This document shows, piece by piece, positions 1 to 42,669 of a DNA stretch of 42,669 nucleotides (within the stretch, counting starts at the first letter, position 1; every line of letters starts with the position of its first letter). The position numbers and the translations under genes are program-made. The notes beneath the pieces were generated by a model. The model was not told where the DNA came from. It searched no databases and saw nothing but the letters and a program-made list of their open reading frames with translations. Source of the DNA: a virus; the IMG/VR virus record IMGVR_UViG_3300037311_000008, positions 1 through 42,669 of that record. The stretch is one strand, 5' to 3'.

Positions 1-111
1 GAAGATGAGCTTGATTGGAACATTAACCCAAGCAGACAGTTTCTTTACTTTACAGACTTTAATGAAGCAGATCGCGCTAACTTAAATCTTGCCACTGACT
101 CCGCTGGCGGC
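1..111. repeat. Terminal direct repeat, copy 1 (identical to 42559..42669)
   Basis: Read directly: gaagatgagcttgattgg...gactccgctggcggc occurs at both window ends (111 nt, no mismatch seen). This indicates a circular or terminally redundant molecule. Confidence 0.95.
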
Positions 112-5834: not shown

Positions 5835-7517
5835 ATGCCAACAGTTCCAACACTAAACAGGCCAGTTCAAGATGCAGCTCTTCCTAATGCAAGAGTCAAA
5901 GACCTGACAAGCGTCGAGACCTTTGGCGGCGGCGAGAGAGTCGCTGCTGGCTTTCGCGCTTCCACTCAGCTCGCTCAGCAGGGCGCTGAGATCATAGAGA
6001 ATGAAGCCAAGAGAGCAGATCAAATTCAGCTAACTCAAGCTTATGCTGATGCGATGAAGGCTAAGAATGATCTTATGTATAACCCGAAGAGTGGCGCAGT
6101 CACTCGAAAGGGTCGTGATTCGTTTGGTGCTATGGAAGAGTATCTTCCGCAATTCGATCAAAGAATGCAGGAGATTGAAGACCGCCTTGGGAATGATCGA
6201 CAAAAAGGACTCTTTGCTGAGATAAAAACAAAACAGAAAGTTGATTTTGACGGCGATCTTCAGAGACACATTTTTAAAGAATCTCAAGAATACGATGCGG
6301 AGACATTAAAATATGGTCTCGATGCCGCTCGAGAAGATGCGCTTTTAAACTATCAGACTCCTGGAAAAGTAGGCGAAAGCATCTTTGCTCAAAAAGCTTT
6401 AGTGATGAACCATGCTAAGAACAATGGTCGATCTCCTGAGTGGACTGAGATGACATTGAAGAAGATTGAAAGCGACACACATAAGGATGTGATGGAGCGA
6501 ATGCTTGCTAACGGCGAAGACATGAAAGCCAGCATTTACTTTCAAACTGTAAAAGAATCTTTAACTGGAGACACAGCCACTGCACTTGAGAAGTCTTTAG
6601 AAGAAGGTTCTTTGCGTGGAAACTCTCAGCGCATTGTTGATGGGCTTGTTCAAAAACATGGTTCCTTGACTTCGGCCATGAGAGAAGTTCGTCAGATCGA
6701 AGACCCAAAGCTAAGAGACTACACACAAGATAGACTCAAGTCTGAGTTCTCTTTGCGTGAAGCTGAAAAGAAGAACTATATTGAGAACCTTGAACGAGGA
6801 GCTTATGACATCGTTGATAAAACTGGAGACCTTCGGCAGATTCCGCCGTCTCAATGGTCACAGTTCGATGGGGGAACTCGAGCGGCTTTAAAGAGATACG
6901 CTGAAGAAAAGCGTGGCGGCGGTTCTATTAAGACCGACATGGAAACATATTATAATTTGAAAGAGCTTGCTGGCGACCCTGCCACTAGGAAAGAATTTGA
7001 GAATCTTAATCTAATGAAGTTTAAAGATAAGCTTTCAGATGCAGATATGAAATCTTTTATCTCAGCTCAAACTGGCTCGAAGTCTGGAGATGGGAAAGCT
7101 AAGAAAGAGCTTGATGGCTGGCGCACAGATACGCAGATTGTTACTGATGCTTATTCAGCAATGGGCCTTGATAAAAAGTCGAAGTCTGGAAAAGAGAAAT
7201 ATCAGCAGTTTGCTAATCGTGTTGAGCAAGAGCAGATTGCAATGCAAGAGAAGCTTGGAAGAAAACTCAACAATACAGAGATGCAAGAAATAACTGACAA
7301 GCTTAAGATTCAAGTCATCACTGAAAAGGGATTCTTTTTTGATACAAAGAAGCGACTTTTTGAAGTTGACCCTAATGCTGGAGAATACGAAGTAACAGAA
7401 GTTCCACCAAAGGACCGCATGGAAATTGAGCGCGTTCTTCGCAAGTACAACAAGCCAGTGACTGAATCAGCTATCCTTGAGCTATTTACAAAGGGTTTAA
7501 ATAATGTCTCTAAATAA
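5835..7517 (+). CDS. Internal virion / ejection protein (T7 gp15-like position)
   Basis: 560 aa, highly charged and predicted helical. It lies between the small internal protein and the giant protein. No enzymatic motif seen. Confidence 0.55.
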   Translation: MPTVPTLNRPVQDAALPNARVKDLTSVETFGGGERVAAGFRASTQLAQQGAEIIENEAKRADQIQLTQAYADAMKAKNDLMYNPKSGAVTRKGRDSFGAMEEYLPQFDQRMQEIEDRLGNDRQKGLFAEIKTKQKVDFDGDLQRHIFKESQEYDAETLKYGLDAAREDALLNYQTPGKVGESIFAQKALVMNHAKNNGRSPEWTEMTLKKIESDTHKDVMERMLANGEDMKASIYFQTVKESLTGDTATALEKSLEEGSLRGNSQRIVDGLVQKHGSLTSAMREVRQIEDPKLRDYTQDRLKSEFSLREAEKKNYIENLERGAYDIVDKTGDLRQIPPSQWSQFDGGTRAALKRYAEEKRGGGSIKTDMETYYNLKELAGDPATRKEFENLNLMKFKDKLSDADMKSFISAQTGSKSGDGKAKKELDGWRTDTQIVTDAYSAMGLDKKSKSGKEKYQQFANRVEQEQIAMQEKLGRKLNNTEMQEITDKLKIQVITEKGFFFDTKKRLFEVDPNAGEYEVTEVPPKDRMEIERVLRKYNKPVTESAILELFTKGLNNVSK

Positions 7518-10500
7518 GTACGAAGATTTATTGCTACAAGAGAAAGATCAATCTCTCAATCCTGCTGCTGCGCCAAAGGTCGCAGACGGTCCTTATGAGT
7601 CTGCTCTTCAGGAAGAGAGCGCAGGGCTGAAGTCGAACATCGCTCAGTCGATGGAATACGCTAGGGAGAAAGAGCCTACTCGAATGGAGAAGGCTTTGAA
7701 GATGGCTAAGGATGTCGGACTTGATGTCGGCACTGTTGAGAGAAACATGGAGACCATAGAGAAGAAGACGCGCTTTGCTGGCGTGGACTATGAGGCTATG
7801 GTTCGAGACACTCCTGGGGTCGCAAAGTTTATGGGAACTCCTGAGAATGCAGCTTTCGCTCAGAATGATATTGCATCAATGGGTCGCATTGAAAAAGCTG
7901 TCGGCTTTGTTCCAAAGCGCGACACTCCTAAGCCTATGGTCCAGTTTGGCGGAGAGATGGCTCAGGCTGGCGAGACTGGCTGGAACAATTTAAAATCAAG
8001 CATGGCTGGGCTTATGATCGCCTTTGGAAAAGGTGATAGGGATATGATTGTCGCTCAGGCTGAGATGAATAAAAGAGCCAAAGAGCTGTCTGATAAAAGA
8101 CCTGACTACTCGAAAGAGTTCAATGCTGTCATGGCCGAAGAAGGCGGAGATGTTAATAAGGCGTGGAATAAATTTAAGAACGGATTTACTCAATGGTCTG
8201 AAGGAAAGAAGCTTGAGGCTTTAAAGTCGATTGTTGTCGGAGATGTGGAAATGGTCGCAGAAGGTCTTGACCTTCTTCGCCACGCAGTCACTCGACCTAG
8301 AGGATTGACTTATTCAATTTCTGAGAACGCAGTGAATGCAGCTCCTTCTATCGGTCTTGGCGCAGCAGGCGTTCTGACTGGACCCTATGCCGTAGTAGCG
8401 ACCCCTGCTGGCGCGTTCGCTGGCAGTGCTGTCAGTGAGGTCGGTTCTGTTATCAACTCGGCCTTTGAACAGCGCGGCGTTGATATCACTGACCCAGATC
8501 AGCTTGAGGCTGCTTATAAAGACCCAGACCTAATGAAAGAAGTACGCGCTCAAGCCTTGAGAAAGGGTTTAACCACAGCAGCAGTCGATGGATTGTTCGC
8601 CGCTTTCGGCGGTCAGTTTGTTTCTAAAGCTGCAAAGGGTGCGAGTATTGCGAAGAAGACAACTGCCTTTGCTAAGGATGTGGCTGTCGAATCTGCTGGC
8701 GAAGTTGTCGGCGAGTTCTCAGGCCAGATCGCAGAACAGAAGGGCGATCTTTCTAAGGTCGATCTTGGTTCAGCCATTCAAGAAGGTATCACTTCCTTAG
8801 GTCAATCGACCATTCAGGCAGCGTCTTCAGCATCAGCCAAAAAAGCCTTTGCTGCTAGAAAGCTTTTTAATAAAGACCCGATGAAAGCAACAGATGAGCT
8901 TCTTCAAAAAACAGATCAGTCAATGGAGACTTTGCAGAATGCGGTCGCTCTTGATGAGATGGGAAAAGCCATCAAAGAAACAAAGAGTTTAAAGAATATT
9001 CCTGAAAAGATTTCTGAGCTTGTTGAAGCCGCGACTGGCGGTCAAGGCGCTGCCGCCGTTTACTTTCAGGCAGATGACTTTGATAGTTATTGGAATAAGA
9101 AGGGCGCGAACCCTTTAGAGAAAGCTGCTGAGATCATGGGAGATAACGGCAAGGCTTATCAAGAAGCGAAAGACGCTGGCGGCGTTATCGAAGTTCCGCT
9201 TGAGAAGTATGCGGCAAGCGTTGGTGTGACTGAAGACTTTGACGGCTTATTGCCAGTAACTCGCACAACTCCAGACGGAATGAGCCTTGAAGAAGCTAAG
9301 GAACACATGGCTTCTCTTCCGGGTTTAATGAAACAGATTGCAGAAGAAGCTACGCAAGTTAATCAAGAAGTGGCTCCTCAAGAGCAAGCCATTGAGCAGA
9401 AAGCTCGAGGGGTTAAAGATATAGTTCAAGAAAGGCTTGTTGCTGCTGGAAGACCTACACGCGAAGCCAAGTATGCGGCGGAGCTTGTTGAAAGATCATT
9501 TACAAATATCGGTCAGAGAATGGGATTCTCTCCTGAACAGTTCGTTGAGTTCGCAGACAAATATCTTCCTAAGATAAATCAGCCTACAAATGAAGAGCAA
9601 GTTCAAGAGCAGGAAGTCATGTTCAATCAATCAGTCAAGGCTCAATTCTATTCTAAGCTTGAATCAACTGTTGAGCAGAAGATGGGCGGAGCCGCAAGTT
9701 CTCAGCAGCTTGAAGGAATGCTCAGAGACATAAAGCCAGAAGAGATGAAGTGGTCTGGACTCGGTGACTTCTTAAAAACTAAAGAGAAATTTACAAAGCA
9801 GGAAGTTGTGGACTTCTTGCGAGCGAACGCTTTGAAGATTGAAGAAGTAACTAAAGGAGTTGAGACTCCTGCATTAACTGAGCAGGAGCAAGCGCGGCTT
9901 GATGAGCTTTACACTATAGATCAAGGAGACATGACCGACGCTCAAGTGAATGAAATGCTGATGCTTGAGAAGAAGCTTGATAGGGCTGCGCAGAATAAGC
10001 CGCGAACAAAATATGAAAAGTATAAACTTCCTGGCGGAGATAACTACAGAGAACTTCTCTTTACTCTCCCCCCAAGAGCTGTCACAACTGCCACGGCTGA
10101 AGAGATTGGCTCTATAGACACATGGGAGTTCAAAGAAAGAAAAGCTTTTAAACAGGCTCCAAAGCAAGAAGTTGAATCTAACGAAGAGTACGCAAAGGCG
10201 AAGAAGAAACTCGCGAAGGATGTTAAGAAGCAATATCCTGAGATGAAGCCGAAGGAAATCTCAAAGACTATTGATGATGTCATGGAGTCTTTCGAGATGA
10301 GAGAAGGCGAAGACATCTCTGGACTCGACACAACTCCAGAGCTAATGACTAAGTTTAAGGAGCTAAAGACTCTTTATAGATCACTTCGCAATCCATATCC
10401 AAACGAAAAGACTTATCGAAAAGATATTCGAGGAAGACGCTTTCTTTTAGTTGACACAGGTATTCCGCCGAAAGCTGGTCAAGAGTTCACTGGCGTTTAC

Positions 10501-13500
10501 TTTGGCGGAACACATAAGAATCCAAAGGGAATGCAGTTTAATACTGTCGAAGAAGCTCTCGCTTATCTTCCTGAAATGATTGCGGAAGAAGAAGCTAGAG
10601 ATAACTCAGAGAACTACAAGTCATCTCACTGGGATGAAACAAATGTTCTTGCTCATACTCGACTCACTGACCGAACAGATGCTGATGGAAACAAGGTTCT
10701 CCATATTGAAGAGATTCAATCTGACTGGCATCAAGATGGAAGAAAGAAGGGTTATCGCTCTGACTTAAAATCAAGCAAAGAAGAGATTGACCTACTTTCT
10801 GAAGAGATGAAATCTCTTGTCGAGAAATACAATCCTATGTCTCTCGACAATCCAGAGAGAAAGCCTCTAGTCGAAAAATATAAAGAACTCCAAAAAAGAA
10901 AGGGAGAGCTTGAAGAGATTGAATATAATAGTTCACGCGCAGTTCAAGATGCTCCATTCAGAAAGACGTGGCATGAGTTCGTCTTCAAGCGAATGGTTAT
11001 AGAAGCAGTAAACAAAGGCTATTCTAAAATCACATGGTCAACTGGCGAACAGAATGCAGCTTTATATTCATTGGAGAAGCAAGTCGATCATGTTGATGTT
11101 GTTTATAATAAAGACGGAACTTATGACGCTGAAGCAATGAAAGACGGCGACCCAGTTTCAAGTAAAGCGAACATCAAGCAGTCTGAACTAGAAGGATTGT
11201 TCGGAAAAGAACTTGCTCAAAAAATCATAGATAAAGAAGGCGAAGAAGACTCCGAAGGAACTTTTAGATATGAAGGCGATGATTTAAAAGTCGGCGGCGA
11301 AGGAATGAAAGGATTCTATGATAAGATTCTTGTAGACTTCGCCAATAAGTTCGGGAAGAAGTACGGCGCGAGAGTTGAAGAAATACAATTCGGAAAGCCA
11401 GATCAATTAAGAGTAACTCGCATGGGAGATAAGTACGCCATTGTCAACTCTGCTGGCAAAGTTCTTCATTCATACGGTTCAAGAGTAGCGGCTGCTGCTG
11501 CCTATGAAGAGTTATCTGGCGGCGGAGATTCAGTTAATTATTCGATGAAGGCTCATTCTCTTGAGATCACTCCAGCTCTAAGAGACGCAGCTTTAACTGA
11601 AGGCTTTGCTCTATATCAAGGCGGAGCAGACAATCCTCTAGGTCAAGTGAAGTTCGGGAAAGATGGAATCAACATTGATCTTCTTCGAGGAGCTAACCCT
11701 TCGACATTCATTCATGAGATGGGTCACGTCTATCTTGAAATGATGAAAGACCTTGCTGGAAAAGCAGAAGCTCCTGAACAAGTGAAAGAAGACTTTAAGA
11801 AGGTTCTAAATTTCCTTGGCGTTGATAGCGCAGAAAAGATCGGAGTCGAACAGCATGAGCTTTTCGCTCGCGGCTTTGAAGCATACTTGAGAGAAGGGAA
11901 AGCTCCAACAGAAGGATTGAGAAAAGCCTTTGCTAACTTTAAAGCATGGCTGATGACGGTTTATAAAACATTGACTCAGCTTCGAGTTGAACTGACTGAT
12001 GAAGTTCGCGGAGTCTTTGATAGACTTGTGGCTTCTGATGAAGAGATCGCCGAAGCTTTAAACCAAGTCACAGCAGACCTTGATCTTTCAAAGCTTGATG
12101 TTCCGACAAAGAAGCAAGAAGAACATCTTCAGGCTATCGCAGAATGGAAAGTCGCAGCCGAAGAGAATCTGACTCAGAAGTTGATGTCTGACTATGATCG
12201 CGCTCAGGCTTCTCAGTATAAAGAAAGAAGAAGCGTTGTTGAATCTCAAGTGGAGAAAGAAGCGAATCAGCTCATAGTCTACAAAGCTATTTCTCTGTTG
12301 AAAGACGGAACTCTTCCTGATGGGTCTCCGCTTCCGCAAGGAGTATCTTCATTCAAGCTTGAGCGATCTTCTATTGAGAACCTATTCTCGAAAGAAGTTG
12401 TGGCTCGCCTTCCATCAAGAACTGTTGCTCCATTAAAGTCTGGCGGCGGAGTTGATGTTAGAGTGGCAGCGTCTATGCTTGGCTTTGAAGACGCAGATCA
12501 GATGATTCAAGCTTTGTCGAACTCTATTCCGAAACAAGACTACATAAAAGCGCAGACCGATGAGCGCATGAAGAACGAATATCCTGACCTTTATGACGAT
12601 GACAGAGACCGTTTAAAAGCCGAGGCCATGAGTTATGTGCATGATGAGATGGGCGCGAAGGTCAAGAGAATGCAGCTTGAAATGATTGCAGAGAAAGCGA
12701 TGCCTGTTCTTAAAGAAGGAATCAGAAACGTAGCTCGCAGACTTCCATCAGATCGACAAGTCAAAGCTCAGGCCATGAAGATTGTTGGCTCTAAGCAAGT
12801 TCGAGATGTGAAGCCGATTGTATTTTTGAGAGCTGAAAGAAAAGCTGCGAAGGATGCTGGTATCGCTCTTGCTCGCGGAGACTTTGAAGCGGCTTATAAG
12901 TTTAAAGAGAAAGAGCTTTTCAACTTTGAGCTTTACAGAGCTTCAATCAATTTCAATAACGAATACAAGAAGCGTCTTCAGAAGGCGAAGAAGATATTCA
13001 AGTCTGATGAGAAGATGGCAAAGACTCATGACATGGATTTAATAAATGCCGCTCGCGCCATGTTCGCAGAGTATGGAATCGGGAAGCAAGGCAAGACTCC
13101 AGATGAGTTCCTAAGCAAGATGAGAAGCTATGACCCAGAGACCTATGAAATGATCTCAGGCTTGATCGAGTCTTCAATGGTTAAAGCTAACTCACTTGAG
13201 GAGATGAGTGTCGATGACTTCTTCGCCTTTACTGATGCGGCTTTCGCGGTCGTTGATCTTGCTAAGACTTCAATGGAACATATTGTTGATGGCAAGGCTT
13301 TAAACAGAGAAGATGTCATCAATGATCTTTCTAACACTCTTGGCGAGAAGACAAAATCATCTGAGCGCGTAGGCTTTGACCGCAAGGCTACAAAATGGGA
13401 AGAGACAAAGATGGCTCTTCTCGGGGTTAAGGCGCATCTCACTCGCGTTGAACAACTGACTGAAGCTCTCGGCGGAAACTTCAAGAAGATGTTCTATCAG

Positions 13501-15483
13501 CCAGTCTCTGATGCGATTGTCAATTATAAGATGAAAAGAAAAGAGAAGATTAGAAAGTGGAGAGACCTGACTCTTGAATACTCCAAAGAGCAGCCTGATG
13601 TGTTCAAAGAAAAGAATATAAAGGCGGAAGAGCTGGCTCGCACAGACGCTGATGGGGTCAAGAGATTCTACACATTCAAAACCAAAGGCGATCTTATTGG
13701 CGCACTTCTCCATGTTGGAAACGAGAGCAACAAGAAGAAGCTTCTCGCTGGTCGTAAATGGGGAACCATGAATGACGATGGAACTATCAACTCGCAAGCG
13801 TGGGATTCTTTTATCAAGAGAATGCACGACGAAGGAGTTCTTGTTAAAGCCGACTGGGATTATATACAGTCAGTCTGGGATTTAATGGAAGAGATGAAGC
13901 CAGATTCTCAGAAGGCTCATAAACAAATGTATGGATATTATTTCAGTGAGATCACAGCAGAGTCTGTCGTGACTCCGTTTGGAGCCTATCGCGGCGGCTA
14001 TGTTCCAGCAAAGGCTGACCCATTCTTATCTGAAGATGGCAGAATAAGAAACGACAAGGACGCTTTCGAGAAGCTCAATAACACATTCATGTTCCCGACA
14101 ACAGGGCGCGGCTTCACTAAGAAACGTGTTGAGCATTATGCTACGCCACTCTCGATTGATCTTAAGCTTGTTGGAAAGCACATCGACCAGTCGATGAGAT
14201 TTACATACATTGAACCAACAGTGAAATCTGTTGCTCGAATTGTTAATGACAAAGGCTTTAGAGAAACTATGTCTCTTTTTGATTCAACAATGGCTTCGGA
14301 AATTTTTATTCCTTGGCTTCAGAGAGCAGCACAGCAGAAGGTCACAACTCCAGGCTCATCTCGCGGTATGGATTTATTCTGGTCTCGCTTGAGAGCGAAT
14401 GCTGGAATGAATGCAATGTTTTTAAACGTGACGAACGCGCTCCAACAGTTCACAGGCTGGTCTATTTCTATGCTGAAGGTGTCGCCAAAGCATTTAAGAA
14501 GCGGCTTCTGGACCTATTTTAAATCTCCGAAAGCGTCGGCGAACATGGTCGCAGAGAAGTCTGCTTTCATGAAGAGCCGTCTTGATGGGGAGATGAATGA
14601 GTTAATGCAAGAAATGGATGAGCTTCTATCTGACCCGAACAAATATGACCAGTTTAAAGTCTTCGCTCAGAAGAACGCCTATATTCTGCAAAGCGGCTTT
14701 CAAAACTGTGTTGATGTGGTGACGTGGATTGGAGCCTATGACCAGTCAGTTTCACAGGGTATGGATGAGAAGACGGCAGTTCGAGAAGCTGATGCTGCTG
14801 TCAGAACAACACAAGGCTCATTGAATGCCGAGGATGTTTCTCGCTTTGAAGTCGGAACTCCGTTCTTTAGAGTGTTCTCAATGTTCTATTCATACTTTAA
14901 CAATCTCGCCAATACTCTTGCCACTGAAGGATATTATAAAGCGATCAGAGACATGGGCTTACGCAAGGGCGCAGGCAGAGCGATGTTCGTTTATATGTTT
15001 GGCTTCGCTATTCCTGCCGTGATGAGTGAAGTTATTGTGCGAGCTATGTCAGGAAAAGACTGGGATGAAGATGATGATGACGATGTTCTTGATGACTTCG
15101 CAGGCATCTTCTTTGGCTCTCAGTTTAGAACAGGAACGGCGCTTCTCCCTGTTGTCGGCACAACGGCTGCTCTGGTTTATAACCAGTTCGACGATGCTGT
15201 GTATAATGACAGACTATCAACATCTCCAGCCATCTCTTCTCTTGAGTCTGCCGTTGTTGGAAACGCGAAGACGGTTCAGGCAATTTTTGATGAAGATAAA
15301 GATGTCAGTCCTAAGAGAGCGACTAGAGACTTTTTAAGCGCCGTCGGACTCATGACAGGTATCCCAACAGGGCAGCTCGGAAAGACAACAGGTTACTTGA
15401 TAGACGTGTCTGAAGGGAAGGCTGAACCAGCAGGGCCAGTCGATGCAGTTCGAGGAGCAGTCACAGGGAAGTCGCCGCGATGA
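7504..15483 (+). CDS. Giant internal/ejected polyvalent protein (2,659 aa) with HEXXH zincin-like core and C-terminal membrane segments
   Basis: Uninterrupted 7,980-nt ORF in the T7 gp16-like position. HEMGH at nt 11713-11727 with downstream HELFARGFEAYLREGKAPT. Block HTRLTDRTDADGNKVLHIEEIQSDWHQDGRKKGY (EEIQSDWHQ at nt 10708-10734). Gly/Ala hydrophobic segments at about nt 8340-8640. Two hydrophobic helices flank DWDEDDDDDVLDDF at about nt 14960-15180. Confidence 0.85.
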   Translation: MSLNKYEDLLLQEKDQSLNPAAAPKVADGPYESALQEESAGLKSNIAQSMEYAREKEPTRMEKALKMAKDVGLDVGTVERNMETIEKKTRFAGVDYEAMVRDTPGVAKFMGTPENAAFAQNDIASMGRIEKAVGFVPKRDTPKPMVQFGGEMAQAGETGWNNLKSSMAGLMIAFGKGDRDMIVAQAEMNKRAKELSDKRPDYSKEFNAVMAEEGGDVNKAWNKFKNGFTQWSEGKKLEALKSIVVGDVEMVAEGLDLLRHAVTRPRGLTYSISENAVNAAPSIGLGAAGVLTGPYAVVATPAGAFAGSAVSEVGSVINSAFEQRGVDITDPDQLEAAYKDPDLMKEVRAQALRKGLTTAAVDGLFAAFGGQFVSKAAKGASIAKKTTAFAKDVAVESAGEVVGEFSGQIAEQKGDLSKVDLGSAIQEGITSLGQSTIQAASSASAKKAFAARKLFNKDPMKATDELLQKTDQSMETLQNAVALDEMGKAIKETKSLKNIPEKISELVEAATGGQGAAAVYFQADDFDSYWNKKGANPLEKAAEIMGDNGKAYQEAKDAGGVIEVPLEKYAASVGVTEDFDGLLPVTRTTPDGMSLEEAKEHMASLPGLMKQIAEEATQVNQEVAPQEQAIEQKARGVKDIVQERLVAAGRPTREAKYAAELVERSFTNIGQRMGFSPEQFVEFADKYLPKINQPTNEEQVQEQEVMFNQSVKAQFYSKLESTVEQKMGGAASSQQLEGMLRDIKPEEMKWSGLGDFLKTKEKFTKQEVVDFLRANALKIEEVTKGVETPALTEQEQARLDELYTIDQGDMTDAQVNEMLMLEKKLDRAAQNKPRTKYEKYKLPGGDNYRELLFTLPPRAVTTATAEEIGSIDTWEFKERKAFKQAPKQEVESNEEYAKAKKKLAKDVKKQYPEMKPKEISKTIDDVMESFEMREGEDISGLDTTPELMTKFKELKTLYRSLRNPYPNEKTYRKDIRGRRFLLVDTGIPPKAGQEFTGVYFGGTHKNPKGMQFNTVEEALAYLPEMIAEEEARDNSENYKSSHWDETNVLAHTRLTDRTDADGNKVLHIEEIQSDWHQDGRKKGYRSDLKSSKEEIDLLSEEMKSLVEKYNPMSLDNPERKPLVEKYKELQKRKGELEEIEYNSSRAVQDAPFRKTWHEFVFKRMVIEAVNKGYSKITWSTGEQNAALYSLEKQVDHVDVVYNKDGTYDAEAMKDGDPVSSKANIKQSELEGLFGKELAQKIIDKEGEEDSEGTFRYEGDDLKVGGEGMKGFYDKILVDFANKFGKKYGARVEEIQFGKPDQLRVTRMGDKYAIVNSAGKVLHSYGSRVAAAAAYEELSGGGDSVNYSMKAHSLEITPALRDAALTEGFALYQGGADNPLGQVKFGKDGINIDLLRGANPSTFIHEMGHVYLEMMKDLAGKAEAPEQVKEDFKKVLNFLGVDSAEKIGVEQHELFARGFEAYLREGKAPTEGLRKAFANFKAWLMTVYKTLTQLRVELTDEVRGVFDRLVASDEEIAEALNQVTADLDLSKLDVPTKKQEEHLQAIAEWKVAAEENLTQKLMSDYDRAQASQYKERRSVVESQVEKEANQLIVYKAISLLKDGTLPDGSPLPQGVSSFKLERSSIENLFSKEVVARLPSRTVAPLKSGGGVDVRVAASMLGFEDADQMIQALSNSIPKQDYIKAQTDERMKNEYPDLYDDDRDRLKAEAMSYVHDEMGAKVKRMQLEMIAEKAMPVLKEGIRNVARRLPSDRQVKAQAMKIVGSKQVRDVKPIVFLRAERKAAKDAGIALARGDFEAAYKFKEKELFNFELYRASINFNNEYKKRLQKAKKIFKSDEKMAKTHDMDLINAARAMFAEYGIGKQGKTPDEFLSKMRSYDPETYEMISGLIESSMVKANSLEEMSVDDFFAFTDAAFAVVDLAKTSMEHIVDGKALNREDVINDLSNTLGEKTKSSERVGFDRKATKWEETKMALLGVKAHLTRVEQLTEALGGNFKKMFYQPVSDAIVNYKMKRKEKIRKWRDLTLEYSKEQPDVFKEKNIKAEELARTDADGVKRFYTFKTKGDLIGALLHVGNESNKKKLLAGRKWGTMNDDGTINSQAWDSFIKRMHDEGVLVKADWDYIQSVWDLMEEMKPDSQKAHKQMYGYYFSEITAESVVTPFGAYRGGYVPAKADPFLSEDGRIRNDKDAFEKLNNTFMFPTTGRGFTKKRVEHYATPLSIDLKLVGKHIDQSMRFTYIEPTVKSVARIVNDKGFRETMSLFDSTMASEIFIPWLQRAAQQKVTTPGSSRGMDLFWSRLRANAGMNAMFLNVTNALQQFTGWSISMLKVSPKHLRSGFWTYFKSPKASANMVAEKSAFMKSRLDGEMNELMQEMDELLSDPNKYDQFKVFAQKNAYILQSGFQNCVDVVTWIGAYDQSVSQGMDEKTAVREADAAVRTTQGSLNAEDVSRFEVGTPFFRVFSMFYSYFNNLANTLATEGYYKAIRDMGLRKGAGRAMFVYMFGFAIPAVMSEVIVRAMSGKDWDEDDDDDVLDDFAGIFFGSQFRTGTALLPVVGTTAALVYNQFDDAVYNDRLSTSPAISSLESAVVGNAKTVQAIFDEDKDVSPKRATRDFLSAVGLMTGIPTGQLGKTTGYLIDVSEGKAEPAGPVDAVRGAVTGKSPR

Positions 15484-17080: not shown

Positions 17081-17383
17081 ATGTTAAGTGCATTTCTGCA
17101 ATGGTTATTCAGTTTCAAGTTCACACAGAACACAAGTGCGGCGGTCGTTGGAACTGCGATCACAGCCGCGCCACTTTTCGGAATCTTAGATAAAAAGATC
17201 ACAGATGAGATTCAACAAGTTAAGGTTGAGATAAGTCAGAAGGCGACTATTGTTTCTGTGCAACATCAAGATGAGGTTCTTCAGTTAGAAATAACTGATC
17301 TCATCAAAACATTAAACAAGATTGAAAAGAATCAAGAAATAACTAACAGTCAATTATGGCAGTTAGTAAACAAAGGGAGATAA
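17081..17383 (+). CDS. Single-TM coiled-coil protein, holin candidate
   Basis: 100 aa. Hydrophobic AAVVGTAITAAPLFGIL is followed by a heptad-like helix. It is the first gene of the lysis cluster, with RBS AAGGAG. Confidence 0.4.
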   Translation: MLSAFLQWLFSFKFTQNTSAAVVGTAITAAPLFGILDKKITDEIQQVKVEISQKATIVSVQHQDEVLQLEITDLIKTLNKIEKNQEITNSQLWQLVNKGR

Positions 17384-17385
17384 GT

Positions 17386-17601
17386 ATGGCACAAAAGCCG
17401 GACATTAAAAAAGCAGGACTAAAGATTCTCGAGAAGTCTTCTCTTGAAACTGTGGACCAGATCATTAAACCTTATGCTAAATACTACGCCGAAGAAAAGG
17501 GCGGCGCTGTTGGCGCAGTATTGGCTCCATTTATTGATGAGCTAACAGAGTACATCAAGAAGGAAGTTGTCGATAAGATCGACGGCGAAGATAACATCTA
17601 A
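17386..17601 (+). CDS. Hypothetical soluble protein (71 aa)
   Basis: Start moved to the ATG at 17386 (RBS AAGGGAGA at 17373-17380, just after the upstream stop) instead of the ORF-track start at 17356. Confidence 0.5.
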   Translation: MAQKPDIKKAGLKILEKSSLETVDQIIKPYAKYYAEEKGGAVGAVLAPFIDELTEYIKKEVVDKIDGEDNI

Positions 17602-17939
17602 TGAAGCACAAGCTGTTTACAGCGAAGCTCGGAGCCGCCAAGGTTGTTGCCTTGGCAGGACTTTCGTTCGGTCCTTTTAATTGGATTCTTTTTATTATTG
17701 CGGAACGAATCTTCAATGTCCTTGCCAATAACGGAATACAGCTCATCAATATGGGCCTGATTAACTGGGACACAGATCAAGACCAGAAGGCTTATGAGTC
17801 TGCGATAGAAGAAGCTTATGAGGCTTTAGAGAAGAAGAAGACTTTTACAAAGGAAGAACTCGATGCGATTGATAAAAAAGTTATTGCTGCTTTCGATAAG
17901 TTCGTTGTCTTTGATAAGCTGCGCGACGGAAATACCTGA
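17601..17939 (+). CDS. i-spanin candidate (N-terminal TM plus helical periplasmic domain); holin is an alternative
   Basis: 112 aa, TAATG-coupled start. TM AAKVVALAGLSFGPFNWILFIIA is followed by a charged helical region DQDQKAYESAIEEAYEALEKKK. Its 3' end carries the overlapping lipoprotein gene. Confidence 0.45.
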   Translation: MKHKLFTAKLGAAKVVALAGLSFGPFNWILFIIAERIFNVLANNGIQLINMGLINWDTDQDQKAYESAIEEAYEALEKKKTFTKEELDAIDKKVIAAFDKFVVFDKLRDGNT

Positions 17940-18216
17940 CTTTAGAATAGACCTAACTCTTCCAGGTAGCGAAGATTGCTATGGGAAATATGTTGTCAGC
18001 CAGAAGTCGGAGCGTCTCACTAAAGACAATCCAGAGTGTATCAAGCGAAAGAGAAAAGCCTTAAGCATAGCGCCTGACCAGTATTCAATTTTAAAAAAAG
18101 CGACATACAAAAATTGTATTTATTCAAAGTGCAAGCAGGCCGTCGAAGTCATTGATGATCTTATTCTCACCATAGATAAAGCTGTCGAGACAGTTTATGG
18201 CGGAAAAGTTAAATGA
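17863..18216 (+). CDS. Lipoprotein (o-spanin candidate; superinfection-exclusion lipoprotein is an alternative)
   Basis: MRLIKKLLLLSISSLSLISC has a signal peptide and lipobox (L-I-S-C). It has its own RBS AAGGAAG at 17850-17856. It overlaps the preceding gene by 77 nt in another frame, as in overlapped Rz/Rz1 pairs. Confidence 0.55.
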   Translation: MRLIKKLLLLSISSLSLISCATEIPDFRIDLTLPGSEDCYGKYVVSQKSERLTKDNPECIKRKRKALSIAPDQYSILKKATYKNCIYSKCKQAVEVIDDLILTIDKAVETVYGGKVK

Positions 18217-18299
18217 TGATTTATATTATAAAACTGATAGAAGTATTATTCACACTTTCAGCTTTCGCATTTGTTGTGTGGCTGATGATAAAATACTAG
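18213..18299 (+). CDS. 28-aa hydrophobic micro-protein (not in ORF track)
   Basis: Hand translation gives MMIYIIKLIEVLFTLSAFAFVVWLMIKY. The ATG overlaps the upstream TGA (ATGATG), and the stop is 9 nt before the endolysin GTG. It is a single TM helix. Confidence 0.4.
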   Translation: MMIYIIKLIEVLFTLSAFAFVVWLMIKY

Positions 18300-18308
18300 G
18301 GGGAAGAA

Positions 18309-19514
18309 GTGGCTCGATATAAAATTTCAGAATTAAAAAATGCGGTCGATCTTATTAAAGAGTTCGAGGGTCTTTATTTAAAGGCATACCTTGACCCAGT
18401 AGGAATCCCGACAATAGGATGGGGAACAATCCGTTATCCTGATGATAGTCCAGTAAAGATTGGCGATGTCATCTCTAAAGAAAGAGCCGATACTCTTCTT
18501 GAATATGAAGTGACAAAGTTCATAAACTGGGTCGATCAACTTGTTAAAGTTCCAGTAAACCCGAACCAGTTCGGCGCACTTGTTTCTTTCGCGTACAATG
18601 TGGGCGCTGACATTGACACAGATGTTATTGCTGAAGGTCTTGGAGATTCGACTCTGCTTAAGAAACTCAATGCTGGAGACTATAACGGCGCATCTCTTGA
18701 GTTCGCAAAGTGGAACAAGGCAGGCGGCAAAGTTTTAAAAGGTCTTGTCAGAAGAAGAGAAGCTGAGCGAAAGCTCTTTGTTACTCCAGCGGCAGGCGGC
18801 AATCCTGTTGTTGATACGAAAGAACCAGAGATCGAAACGCCAAACTGGTTTGAGCCATTCAAAAAATGGATTCTTGCTTTAGTCGATGCGGTCTTTGGAA
18901 AGAAAGGCGAAAGCAGTGCTGTTGCTGAGCCGCCGCCTGATGACTTAGCATCTATGATTTTGAAGCAGAACCCTACTATCAGTCGCGCTGCTTTACTTTA
19001 TTCTCTTAAGTTTAAAGACCATGAGAAAGTTAAGAATAAAAAATATCTTTCAATTCTTGATGCGAACAAGCCTGACTATCAATCGCGCTTCCACTTCATT
19101 GACATGAAGACCTTTGTATCAAGAAATGAACTTGCGGCTCATGGCTCAGGTTCAGATAAGAACAAAGACAACATTGCTGAATCATTCTCAAATGTTCCCG
19201 GAAGCTATCAATCATCTCTCGGTCCTATGGTCTTTGCTGAGAACTATGTGTCTGGAAAGAAGAAGACTGGCGACAGAAGTGCTTTTCAAATATCAAGACG
19301 CATTGATGGATTGATTAAAGGTCTCAATGATAAGGTCAGAGCGAGAGCTATTGTGTTCCACGACGGCTTCTATGTGACTCCAGAAAGAGCAAAGATCAAG
19401 AGCGTTGGAGATTCTCAAGGCTGTATAGTTCTTTACTATCCTGTCATTAAAGAGATCAATCCTTTAGTTGAGGGGTCTTTACTTGTGATTTATCATAGCT
19501 CTTTAGAGTCTTGA
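18309..19514 (+). CDS. Bifunctional endolysin: GH24 (T4-type) muramidase plus C-terminal YkuD-like L,D-transpeptidase-fold domain
   Basis: GTG start with RBS GGGGGAAG. The N-terminus EFEGLYLKAYLDPVGIPTIGWGT carries the GH24 E/D/T triad. The C-terminus HGSGSDKNKDNIAESFSNVPGSYQSSLGPMVFAENYVSGKK...RARAIVFHDGFYV...GDSQGC matches the YkuD_2-type pattern, with His351 at nt 19359-19361 and Cys372 at nt 19422-19424. Confidence 0.8.
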   Translation: MARYKISELKNAVDLIKEFEGLYLKAYLDPVGIPTIGWGTIRYPDDSPVKIGDVISKERADTLLEYEVTKFINWVDQLVKVPVNPNQFGALVSFAYNVGADIDTDVIAEGLGDSTLLKKLNAGDYNGASLEFAKWNKAGGKVLKGLVRRREAERKLFVTPAAGGNPVVDTKEPEIETPNWFEPFKKWILALVDAVFGKKGESSAVAEPPPDDLASMILKQNPTISRAALLYSLKFKDHEKVKNKKYLSILDANKPDYQSRFHFIDMKTFVSRNELAAHGSGSDKNKDNIAESFSNVPGSYQSSLGPMVFAENYVSGKKKTGDRSAFQISRRIDGLIKGLNDKVRARAIVFHDGFYVTPERAKIKSVGDSQGCIVLYYPVIKEINPLVEGSLLVIYHSSLES

Positions 19515-19687
19515 TTTATCTCTCCGCTTCCGTTGCATTTATCACAGTGGACAGCTTCGGCTGTTCCGCATGATTCACATTCAACAAAGCCTGCTCCATC
19601 GCATTCATCACACTCAATAGTCTCAGGCTCCTTTGCATTCCAAGGAGCGTTGGGGTCGTTCTCTGAGCCTTCAGGATAGTTAATCAT
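19493..19687 (-). CDS. DnaJ-type Cys-rich zinc-finger protein (64 aa)
   Basis: CDECDGAGF..CESCG..CDKCNGSGE gives CxxCxGxG repeats. This is the last gene of the leftward operon. Its 3' end overlaps the endolysin 3' end by 22 nt, convergently. Confidence 0.65.
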   Translation of the reverse strand: MINYPEGSENDPNAPWNAKEPETIECDECDGAGFVECESCGTAEAVHCDKCNGSGEINQDSKEL

Positions 19688-42297: not shown

Positions 42298-42669
42298 GTG
42301 GCTGTTACAAACTATCCTTTAATTTCAGGCGTAGGAAACGGCGGCGGCTCATCTGGGAACTCTGTTCATCCTAACTTCGCAAGCTTTCCTGTGACTGGAA
42401 CTTCAGGCATTCTTTACATCGACACAGGACTGAACGACCTTTATCTGTGGACTGGAACTGTGTATGAGCTGCAATCTTCCACTGGCGGCGGAACATGGGG
42501 AAGTATCACAGGAACTCTCAGTTCTCAGACCGATCTTCAAACTGCGCTAAACGCAAAGGAAGATGAGCTTGATTGGAACATTAACCCAAGCAGACAGTTT
42601 CTTTACTTTACAGACTTTAATGAAGCAGATCGCGCTAACTTAAATCTTGCCACTGACTCCGCTGGCGGC
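42298..42669 (+). CDS. Tail fibre / receptor-binding protein, N-terminal part (continues at nt 112 after circular closure)
   Basis: GTG at 42298, immediately after the TAA of the upstream gene (RBS GGGGGGA). It is open to the window end, and 42559 is in frame with nt 1. Fibre-type motifs: HPNFASFPVTGTSGILYIDTGLNDLYLWTG and TGTLSSQTDLQTALNAK. Confidence 0.8.
   Translation, partial: MAVTNYPLISGVGNGGGSSGNSVHPNFASFPVTGTSGILYIDTGLNDLYLWTGTVYELQSSTGGGTWGSITGTLSSQTDLQTALNAKEDELDWNINPSRQFLYFTDFNEADRANLNLATDSAGG
42559..42669. repeat. Terminal direct repeat, copy 2 (identical to 1..111)
   Basis: Read directly; see copy 1. Confidence 0.95.

Follow-up and report, generated by a model that had tools for sequence, protein, structure and literature searches.

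Why would a phage endolysin carry a domain whose fold normally builds 3-3 cross-links in the bacterial wall? The question is raised by the gene at 18309..19514 (+ strand) of the IMG/VR virus record IMGVR_UViG_3300037311_000008, which we analysed over its full 42,669 nucleotides (hereafter, the window). Its 401-aa product joins an N-terminal lysozyme domain of glycoside hydrolase family 24 (GH24) to a C-terminal YkuD_2 module with the L,D-transpeptidase (LDT) fold, an endolysin architecture that is real, rare and undescribed. In our favoured reading, the YkuD_2 domain is a second enzymatic domain, a hydrolytic peptidase with L,D specificity, and not a binding module; we put the probability of this reading at roughly one half.

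The endolysin gene and the reality of the fusion

The reading frame lies exactly where an initial annotation, made from the letters alone, had placed it. It opens with GTG, ends with the stop codon at 19512-19514 and is preceded by a Shine-Dalgarno-like GGGGGAAG (18299..18306, + strand), whose end is separated from the GTG by 2 bases; the start sites of homologues match the residue equivalent to this start. Pfam assigns residues 17–153 (18357..18767, +) to PF00959 Phage_lysozyme (E=1.5e-42, 145.3 bits at a cut-off of 22.3, profile positions 1-125 of 125) and residues 226–395 to PF13645 YkuD_2 (E=4.1e-28, 98.4 bits at a cut-off of 27, profile positions 11-169 of 169), the latter within a domain spanning residues 210–401 (18936..19511, +). 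Both assignments are far beyond chance. The GH24 plus YkuD_2 call of the initial annotation has thus passed its profile check: a YkuD-family profile does match, His351 and Cys372 sit 21 residues apart as proposed, and the listed motifs (EFEG, YLDPVG, TIGWGT, HGSGSD, FSNVPGSYQSSLG, IVFHDGFYV and GDSQGC) all occur in the protein. A scan against PHROGs recognised the N-terminal half alone, as phrog_7 endolysin, and NCBIfam returned sub-threshold lysozyme-family matches only. The endolysin role suggested earlier holds as well, given the position of the gene in a lysis cassette.

An identical 401-aa protein occurs, at a permuted position, on a second, independently assembled contig of 42,588 bp (dataset SRR13020431), and ~25 related metagenomic clusters carry the same GH24 + YkuD_2 pairing. 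Consequently, the fusion is not an assembly artefact, and a chimera is ruled out as its source.

Has such an enzyme been seen before? None of 50,697 deposited phage genome records covers at least 80% of the 401-aa endolysin. PhaLP lists a rare ‘YkuD’ lysin class (10 occurrences; PF03734, cd16913, PF10908), in which PF13645 does not figure (PMC8310338), and the view that this combination is absent from characterised endolysins holds. Both older and newer surveys mention YkuD as a rare lysin domain, and our literature search found no YkuD-type lysin domain that had been biochemically characterised. The window’s endolysin resembles the PhaLP class in placing an LDT-superfamily domain in a lysin, and differs from it in using PF13645. 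The phage literature on ‘LD-endopeptidases’ was considered as a precedent and set aside, as it refers to CwlK-type M15 annotations of another fold. With the C-terminal half as query, the phage database gave a single match, OQ658363 (‘Pseudomonas phage sp.’); this YkuD_2 gene adjoins host housekeeping genes beside a Pf prophage and was hence rejected as a lysin and taken to be cellular. The host genes on that record (OQ658363.1) comprise a pseudouridine synthase, a PhaG-like transacylase and the YkuD_2 gene, and the record bounds appear to run into the chromosome.

Two-enzyme modular endolysins are represented by staphylococcal enzymes combining CHAP with Amidase_2 and by streptococcal enzymes combining an endopeptidase with a glucosaminidase. 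The endolysin described here likewise joins a glycan-cutting and a peptide-directed domain by a linker, and is likewise encoded in a lysis cassette. Lysins with two enzymatic domains typically belong to phages of Gram-positive hosts; the present phage, by contrast, looks diderm-infecting.

What type of lysozyme is the N-terminal domain? Its catalytic triad consists of E20 (18366-18368), D29 (18393-18395) and T35 (18411-18413; all + strand), among which, in 23 homologues, E20 and T35 never vary and D29 seldom does (conserved in at least 90%). Judged by its residues, the domain belongs with the hydrolytic T4/P22-type muramidases, of which this Glu-x8-Asp-x5-Thr arrangement is the pattern. Its nearest PDB relatives (9kbq, 6et6, 8b2s, P22 2anv and R21 3hdf) are hydrolytic muramidases as well, the closest solved structures being of the Acinetobacter-phage, P22 and P21 (R21) type. 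A lambda-type lytic transglycosylase identity was rejected, given the E-D-T triad, the hydrolases among the nearest structures and the absence of lambda R from the matches.

The YkuD_2 module, its active site and its partners

How well does the C-terminal half fit a known enzyme family? All residues invariant in the family (R260, N295, G305, G334, N340, R346, H351, Y355, G367, G371 and C372) are present, with His351 encoded at 19359-19361, Asp368 at 19410-19412 and Cys372 at 19422-19424 (+). The canonical LDT motif, H-x(15-18)-[S/T]-H-G-C-h-R, reads H-x17-S-Q-G-C-I-V in the endolysin, Gln replacing the second His and no Arg following two residues after the Cys, and the canonical YkuD profile PF03734 gave no match in the endolysin even at E<=10. 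The protein also departs from the typical cellular YkuD_2 form—standalone, secreted or lipoprotein, with G-R-S-x-G-C—in that it has no signal peptide, is fused to a lysozyme and carries Asp368.

An AlphaFold2 model of residues 175–401, built from a 34-sequence alignment, reached a mean predicted local distance difference test (pLDDT) score of 94 and a predicted template-modelling score of 0.81. It lays out a helix at residues 179–196, a low-confidence linker, a two-helix sub-domain and a beta-rich core. In a Foldseek search of the PDB, the top 13 matches to the model were all of the LDT fold, at probabilities of 0.54-1.00 (the first ten at 1.00), and included LdtMt1, an M. smegmatis LDT, Bd1075, Pgp2, LdtMt2, LdtMt5, Ldtfm and LdtGo. 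LDT-fold enzymes were the only significant PDB fold matches, with the L,D-carboxypeptidases Bd1075 and Pgp2 among the top five, and we regard the ErfK/YkuD beta-sandwich fold predicted by the model as secure. A viral predicted-structure library held no comparable lysin for the module.

Is the active site preserved beyond this one protein? Upon aligning 216 retrieved homologues to the family profile, we found His351 and Cys372 together in 24 of 25 GH24-fused members, in all 42 other multi-domain proteins and in all 149 standalone ones. The one exception, P0009 (334 aa), is truncated before the His and Cys of YkuD_2; the gene could be in decay, or the early end could stem from a frameshift or assembly error. 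R260, N295, G305, R346 and G371 are likewise kept, and the dyad and the family-invariant residues are retained across 30-65% sequence divergence in every complete member. Position 368, four residues ahead of the Cys, behaves differently: it is Asp in 22 of the 24 complete GH24-fused members (Arg in 2), divided in the other multi-domain proteins (20 Arg, 18 Asp) and predominantly Arg in the standalone group (119 Arg, 3 Asp). Lysin-linked forms thus carry GD[ST]xGC, cellular standalone forms GRSxGC.

Which domains does the module associate with? In a 5.8-billion-protein collection, PF00959 and PF13645 occur together in ~25 clusters, all of them metagenomic and many on contigs of 30-46 kb. An exhaustive HMMER scan with the module over 1.84 billion cluster representatives retrieved 1,880 proteins at E<=1e-3; nearly all of the ~30 best matches are multi-domain proteins of 330-560 aa, followed by ordinary standalone proteins of 200-280 aa. 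The fusion exists in both orders, lysozyme–YkuD_2 (as in the present endolysin) and YkuD_2–lysozyme, and more distant members pair YkuD_2 with GH108 and PG_binding_3, with a glucosaminidase and Amidase_2, or with PG_binding_1. In IMG/VR, no more than three loci were confirmed by pattern-based scans, which makes the family a rare one.

In a syntenic sister phage (L040), GH24 has been replaced while the unit of helix and YkuD_2 is kept at ~63% identity. The replacement N-domain of ~200 aa (P0008, P0012-P0014, P0016, P0029; L040 5001-6293) has no Pfam or PHROG match; proteins bearing it are labelled ‘lysozyme family protein’ by the Joint Genome Institute, and the one deposited sequence related to it comes from a Bradyrhizobium phage and bears the name ‘peptidoglycan-binding protein’ (34% identity). 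The reciprocal exchange is also seen. Sister lysins (P0021, P0022, P0023, P0028, P0030, P0031, P0035-37 and P0046) retain GH24 and the TPxWFEPFK helix, with YkuD_2 swapped for a ~195-aa phrog_3000 domain that has an invariant His and Cys of its own, within the invariant motifs GMHNGSVPH and N[IV]HRGG..SS[LI]GC. Profile–profile comparison of this domain with YkuD_2 was negative, and the best match in its fold search was not significant (E=0.29), with LdtMt1, Csd6, DpaA and Tlde1a within the top 26. The domain may represent a further, highly diverged wall peptidase of the Cys/His type, which these matches do no more than suggest. A standalone phrog_3000-type homologue (36% identity) is gp76 of Bdellovibrio phage phi1422 (L045, 44812-45345), whose gene comes last, behind those for the tail fibres. 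Since no endolysin is annotated in the phi1422 record, gp76 may be its overlooked lysin. Whole-genome kinship between the present phage and phi1422 was dismissed, as only two open reading frames (ORFs) match.

A helix travels with the module. A linker containing Pro and Gly (residues 159–178, 18783..18842, +), variable in length among homologues, leads to the helix modelled at residues 179–196 (18843..18896, +; core WFEPFKKWILALVDAVFG, residues 180–197) at a pLDDT of ~88, and a second linker of low confidence (residues 197–209, 18897..18935, +; pLDDT 64-74) connects it to the domain. The amphipathic helix noted in the initial annotation is thereby borne out: WFEPFKKWILALVDAVFG is moderately amphipathic, with a hydrophobic moment (muH) of 0.41, a mean hydrophobicity of 0.45 and a net charge of 0, and its moment is equalled or exceeded in 2% of shuffles. 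The TPxWFEPFK motif is kept across three different architectures. This ~18-residue helix precedes YkuD_2, and is therefore internal in the domain order of the window’s endolysin; most, though not all, members with the reversed order have an equivalent helix at their extreme N-terminus, at the place held by the signal peptide in cellular YkuD_2 relatives. Reading the helix as a signal peptide, a signal-anchor-release (SAR) segment or a transmembrane segment was rejected, as no segment exceeds the hydropathy threshold—the same holds for the entire 401 aa—and the helix contains charged residues. A cationic outer-membrane-permeabilising peptide was rejected on account of the zero net charge. The properties of the helix, as computed from its sequence, would fit a membrane-surface helix or a structural spacer.

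Where did the pairing arise? In a neighbour-joining tree of the modules, built without bootstrap, the modules linked to lysins fall into a single clade, separate from the cellular proteins, within which both domain orders interleave; one Arg-type fusion groups with cellular proteins. The interleaving and the position of this Arg-type fusion imply that the pairing was assembled repeatedly. Among 185,579 reference genomes scanned, there was no prophage copy; only standalone secreted or lipoprotein YkuD_2 genes were found, at a best identity of 38-44%. About 19 of the 36 reference-genome loci (L002-L037), which hold the module’s closest cellular relatives, are standalone YkuD_2 genes from Bdellovibrio and relatives, predators that remodel the prey wall, a share that may reflect a bias of the search pattern or a real evolutionary source. 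Cellular YkuD_2 proteins, such as Legionella lpg1697 and Bdellovibrionales lipoproteins, belong to the same Pfam family and have the invariant residues in common with the module. They differ in standing alone, at a length of ~200-280 aa, and in carrying GRSxGC and a secretory or lipoprotein signal, whereas the phage forms are fused, bear the helix in the signal’s place and read GD[ST]xGC. Cyanobacterial proteins P0056, P0066, P0095, P0110 and P0115, from genomes and metagenome-assembled genomes, also unite lysozyme and LDT fold in one protein (the first four go under the name of glycoside hydrolase family proteins), with canonical PF03734 rather than YkuD_2 and an added PG_binding_1 (PF01471); this PF00959 + PF03734 pairing is apparently independent and convergent.

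What the second domain may do

What, then, is the role of the module? The outcome of YkuD-fold catalysis depends on what resolves the thioester formed at the L-centre carbonyl of the third stem-peptide residue. We infer that the YkuD_2 domain is active, that it is hydrolytic, and which bond it cuts. In the mechanism we propose, the GH24 domain (E20/D29/T35) would hydrolyse the glycan bond between N-acetylmuramic acid and N-acetylglucosamine (MurNAc-GlcNAc), and Cys372 with His351 would attack the L-centre carbonyl of meso-diaminopimelic acid (meso-DAP), the third stem-peptide residue, to give a thioester that, in the lysin-linked clade, water would resolve. YkuD_2 would then be an L,D-specific peptidase, most likely a 3-3 cross-link endopeptidase and/or a tetrapeptide carboxypeptidase, and not a cross-linking transpeptidase, while the helix travelling with the module would probably park the protein on the membrane surface or act as a fixed spacer. 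Hydrolysis would be the outcome that makes sense in a lysin, and 3-3 cleavage would be the most useful for lysis.

Hydrolytic precedents exist within the YkuD fold, namely DpaA, Csd6, Pgp2 and Bd1075, along with C. difficile Ldts that have endopeptidase activity (PMC12729407), and the toxic type VI secretion effector Tlde1 represents another hydrolytic LDT-fold case (bioRxiv 10.1101/2020.02.18.954545). DpaA (LdtF, the Lpp–peptidoglycan amidase), Csd6, Pgp2, Bd1075 and Tlde1 have the fold in common with the module, and their Cys/His chemistry at the meso-DAP L-centre, ending in hydrolysis, is that which we propose for it. Unlike the module, they fall into PF03734 or PF10908 and are cellular enzymes or secreted toxins, at 10-16% identity and a template-modelling (TM) score of ~0.4.

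The initial annotation had left two options for the C-terminal domain, a second lytic activity or a stem-peptide-binding module, and the evidence favours the former. We consider the module a working enzyme because its active-site set is retained over such wide divergence, because binding domains co-occur with it and because it behaves as an exchangeable partner of glycan-cutting domains. That it only binds stem peptides and thereby anchors the lysozyme, its catalytic residues being kept for binding or by inertia, seems quite unlikely. Modular endolysins do usually pair one enzymatic with one binding domain, and a catalytically dead YkuD copy in LdtPae1 has been proposed to bind peptidoglycan (PMC10434034), but this copy has lost its Cys, whereas the module keeps Cys, His and the invariant residues in every complete member and stands beside dedicated PG_binding_1 and PG_binding_3 domains. 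The same strict Cys/His conservation would go unexplained, as would the co-occurrence with other lysin enzymes and binding domains, if helix and YkuD_2 did not act on the wall and instead governed when or where the lysozyme works, by membrane tethering or by auto-inhibition before triggering. Despite the conservation of the helix across architectures with different C-terminal domains, and a hydrophobicity and moment typical of helices that seek surfaces, we hold such a regulatory role to be very improbable.

If the module is an enzyme, it could still be one that exchanges rather than hydrolyses. Tlde1-type effectors are toxic via carboxypeptidase and exchange activities (bioRxiv 10.1101/2020.02.18.954545), the family’s catalytic machinery is fully conserved here, and the nearest cellular relatives are presumed to be transpeptidases; by exchanging or cutting off the D-Ala at the end of tetrapeptides, or by forming aberrant links, the module would sabotage wall repair instead of severing load-bearing bonds. 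Yet lysis is completed seconds to minutes after holin triggering, leaving little for slow remodelling to add, the making of cross-links would oppose lysis, and the clade-specific change from Arg to Asp suggests a shift away from the cellular function. On balance, this account appears rather unlikely. Cleavage of outer-membrane tethers is an attractive alternative, if an unlikely one: YkuD_2 would act as a DpaA-like amidase that frees meso-DAP from covalently attached outer-membrane proteins (Braun-type lipoprotein or beta-barrel), thereby detaching wall and outer membrane from each other at lysis and aiding the spanins. The final obstacle to the lysis of a Gram-negative cell is its outer membrane, and the host is probably diderm. 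Moreover, DpaA is a purely hydrolytic YkuD-fold enzyme that differs from transpeptidases by a lost active-site Arg (PMC12729407), and the lysin clade also replaces the family-typical Arg near the Cys, by an Asp whose acidic side chain could suit a Lys or amine leaving group. However, the Arg lost in DpaA lies at another motif position, after the Cys, and the lysis cassette appears to encode a spanin-like pair of its own.

Several points weigh against a hydrolytic L,D-peptidase. A hydrolytic GH24 should dissolve a Gram-negative sacculus alone, and the need for a second activity is not obvious. L,D-cross-links were shown to inhibit transglycosylase-type endolysins (lambda, P2) and to reduce plaque formation, while lysozyme-type enzymes (T4, P1) were unaffected (Alvarez et al. 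2024, PMC11390936). The GH24 domain of the present endolysin belongs to this unaffected, hydrolytic class, which makes the selective logic less clear, and an account in which the module relieves the inhibition of a transglycosylase is weakened for this protein, its N-domain not being one. The fold matches of the module are distant (TM scores of 0.30-0.40 at 10-16% identity), and PDB sequence searches with the C-terminal half, be it as a single sequence or as a family profile, returned nothing meaningful; Asp368 is consequently not placed relative to a substrate. The Asp/Arg contrast at this position is confounded by phylogeny, the Asp forms being essentially one clade, and the conserved dyad is equally compatible with transpeptidase/exchange chemistry and with hydrolysis. 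Lastly, the literature yielded no PF13645 member with demonstrated enzymatic activity, the sole functional mention of the family being a survival phenotype of Legionella lpg1697 (PMC10117105).

What would follow if the module does hydrolyse? Tentatively, and with considerable doubt, the Asp-type lysin-linked clade may be viewed as a phage-specific hydrolase in which a wall-building fold has been turned wall-cutting, removing 3-3 cross-links and/or outer-membrane tethers. If true, this would be the first phage counter-measure to wall hardening by L,D-cross-links and the first lytic YkuD-fold enzyme, and synergy would then account for the repeated fusion to glycan-cutting domains, irrespective of their order. 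As a rule, endolysins for Gram-negative bacteria consist of one domain, and there is demand for new enzymatic modules from which enzybiotics can be built. The present one is compact, predicted to be well folded and cysteine-based, with a fold whose usual tasks are the formation of 3-3 cross-links and the attachment of outer-membrane proteins. Should it cleave those bonds, it would represent a new lytic specificity and a probe for L,D-cross-linked walls, as in beta-lactam bypass, stationary phase or stress-hardened envelopes, and the clade-specific Arg-to-Asp change would point to a concrete residue for a switch between synthesis and hydrolysis. Modifications that harden the bacterial envelope protect against some phage endolysins (PMC11390936), and whether predatory enzymes can evolve against L,D-cross-linked peptidoglycan is a question raised by Alvarez et al. 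2024, to which this family would be a candidate answer. Were the module to bind only, the protein would be an ordinary modular lysin variant.

The phage, its lysis cassette and neighbouring genes

Which phage encodes this enzyme? The ends of the window (1-111 and 42559-42669) overlap exactly over 111 bp, indicating a complete, circularly assembled phage genome of ~42,558 bp. Its backbone is that of an epsilon15/BPP-1-like podovirus, comprising a tail protein, a 2,659-aa virion protein, a tail fibre, RecT, a RecE-like exonuclease and a primase-helicase; the presence of integrases and repressors in relatives marks the group as temperate. The deposited relatives phiV10 and epsilon15 are only ~48% identical in the portal, and the remaining portal relatives are all metagenomic. 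The genome contains no tRNA genes that could have served as a host clue.

The endolysin gene is the last of a rightward late operon consisting of the tail fibre, four small ORFs and the endolysin, a layout kept in L001 and L040. Among the small ORFs (all + strand), 17081..17383 encodes a 100-aa protein with one transmembrane segment by hydropathy (residues 19–37) and a coiled-coil-like tail, and 17601..17939 a 112-aa membrane protein with a hydrophobic stretch at about residues 5–42 and a charged helical C-terminus (47.5% identity to its syntenic L040 ORF); either is a candidate holin or i-spanin. Between them lies a conserved 81-aa ORF of no predicted feature (17356..17601; 56.5% identity in L040). 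The fourth, at 17863..18216, overlaps the gene at 17601..17939 by 77 nt and encodes a 117-aa lipoprotein with a signal sequence and the lipobox LISC (Cys20), a candidate o-spanin with 55.6% identity to the syntenic L040 ORF. None of the candidate holin and spanin ORFs matched a PHROG, and the roles suggested for them derive from topology only. The presence of a lipoprotein gene in the cassette makes a diderm host probable. The final position of the gene after membrane and lipoprotein ORFs, combined with the lack of a signal or SAR segment, marks the protein as a canonical holin-dependent endolysin. Promoter and terminator scans around the gene gave nothing above shuffled expectation.

Elsewhere in the genome, the N-terminal ~270 aa of a 560-aa protein (5835-7517, +) match the ‘endolysin’ PHROGs phrog_10475 and phrog_1044, and the 2,659-aa protein (7504-15483, +; phrog_9880) follows directly downstream. 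The two are probably virion-associated wall-degrading and ejection proteins, which would give the phage another muralytic enzyme, for use at entry. At its 3′ end, the endolysin gene is overlapped over 22 nt by a convergent 64-aa gene (19493-19687, − strand) with DnaJ-like CxxC zinc-finger repeats (ECDECDGAGFVECESCG...CDKCNGSG), which is called on the independent assembly too.

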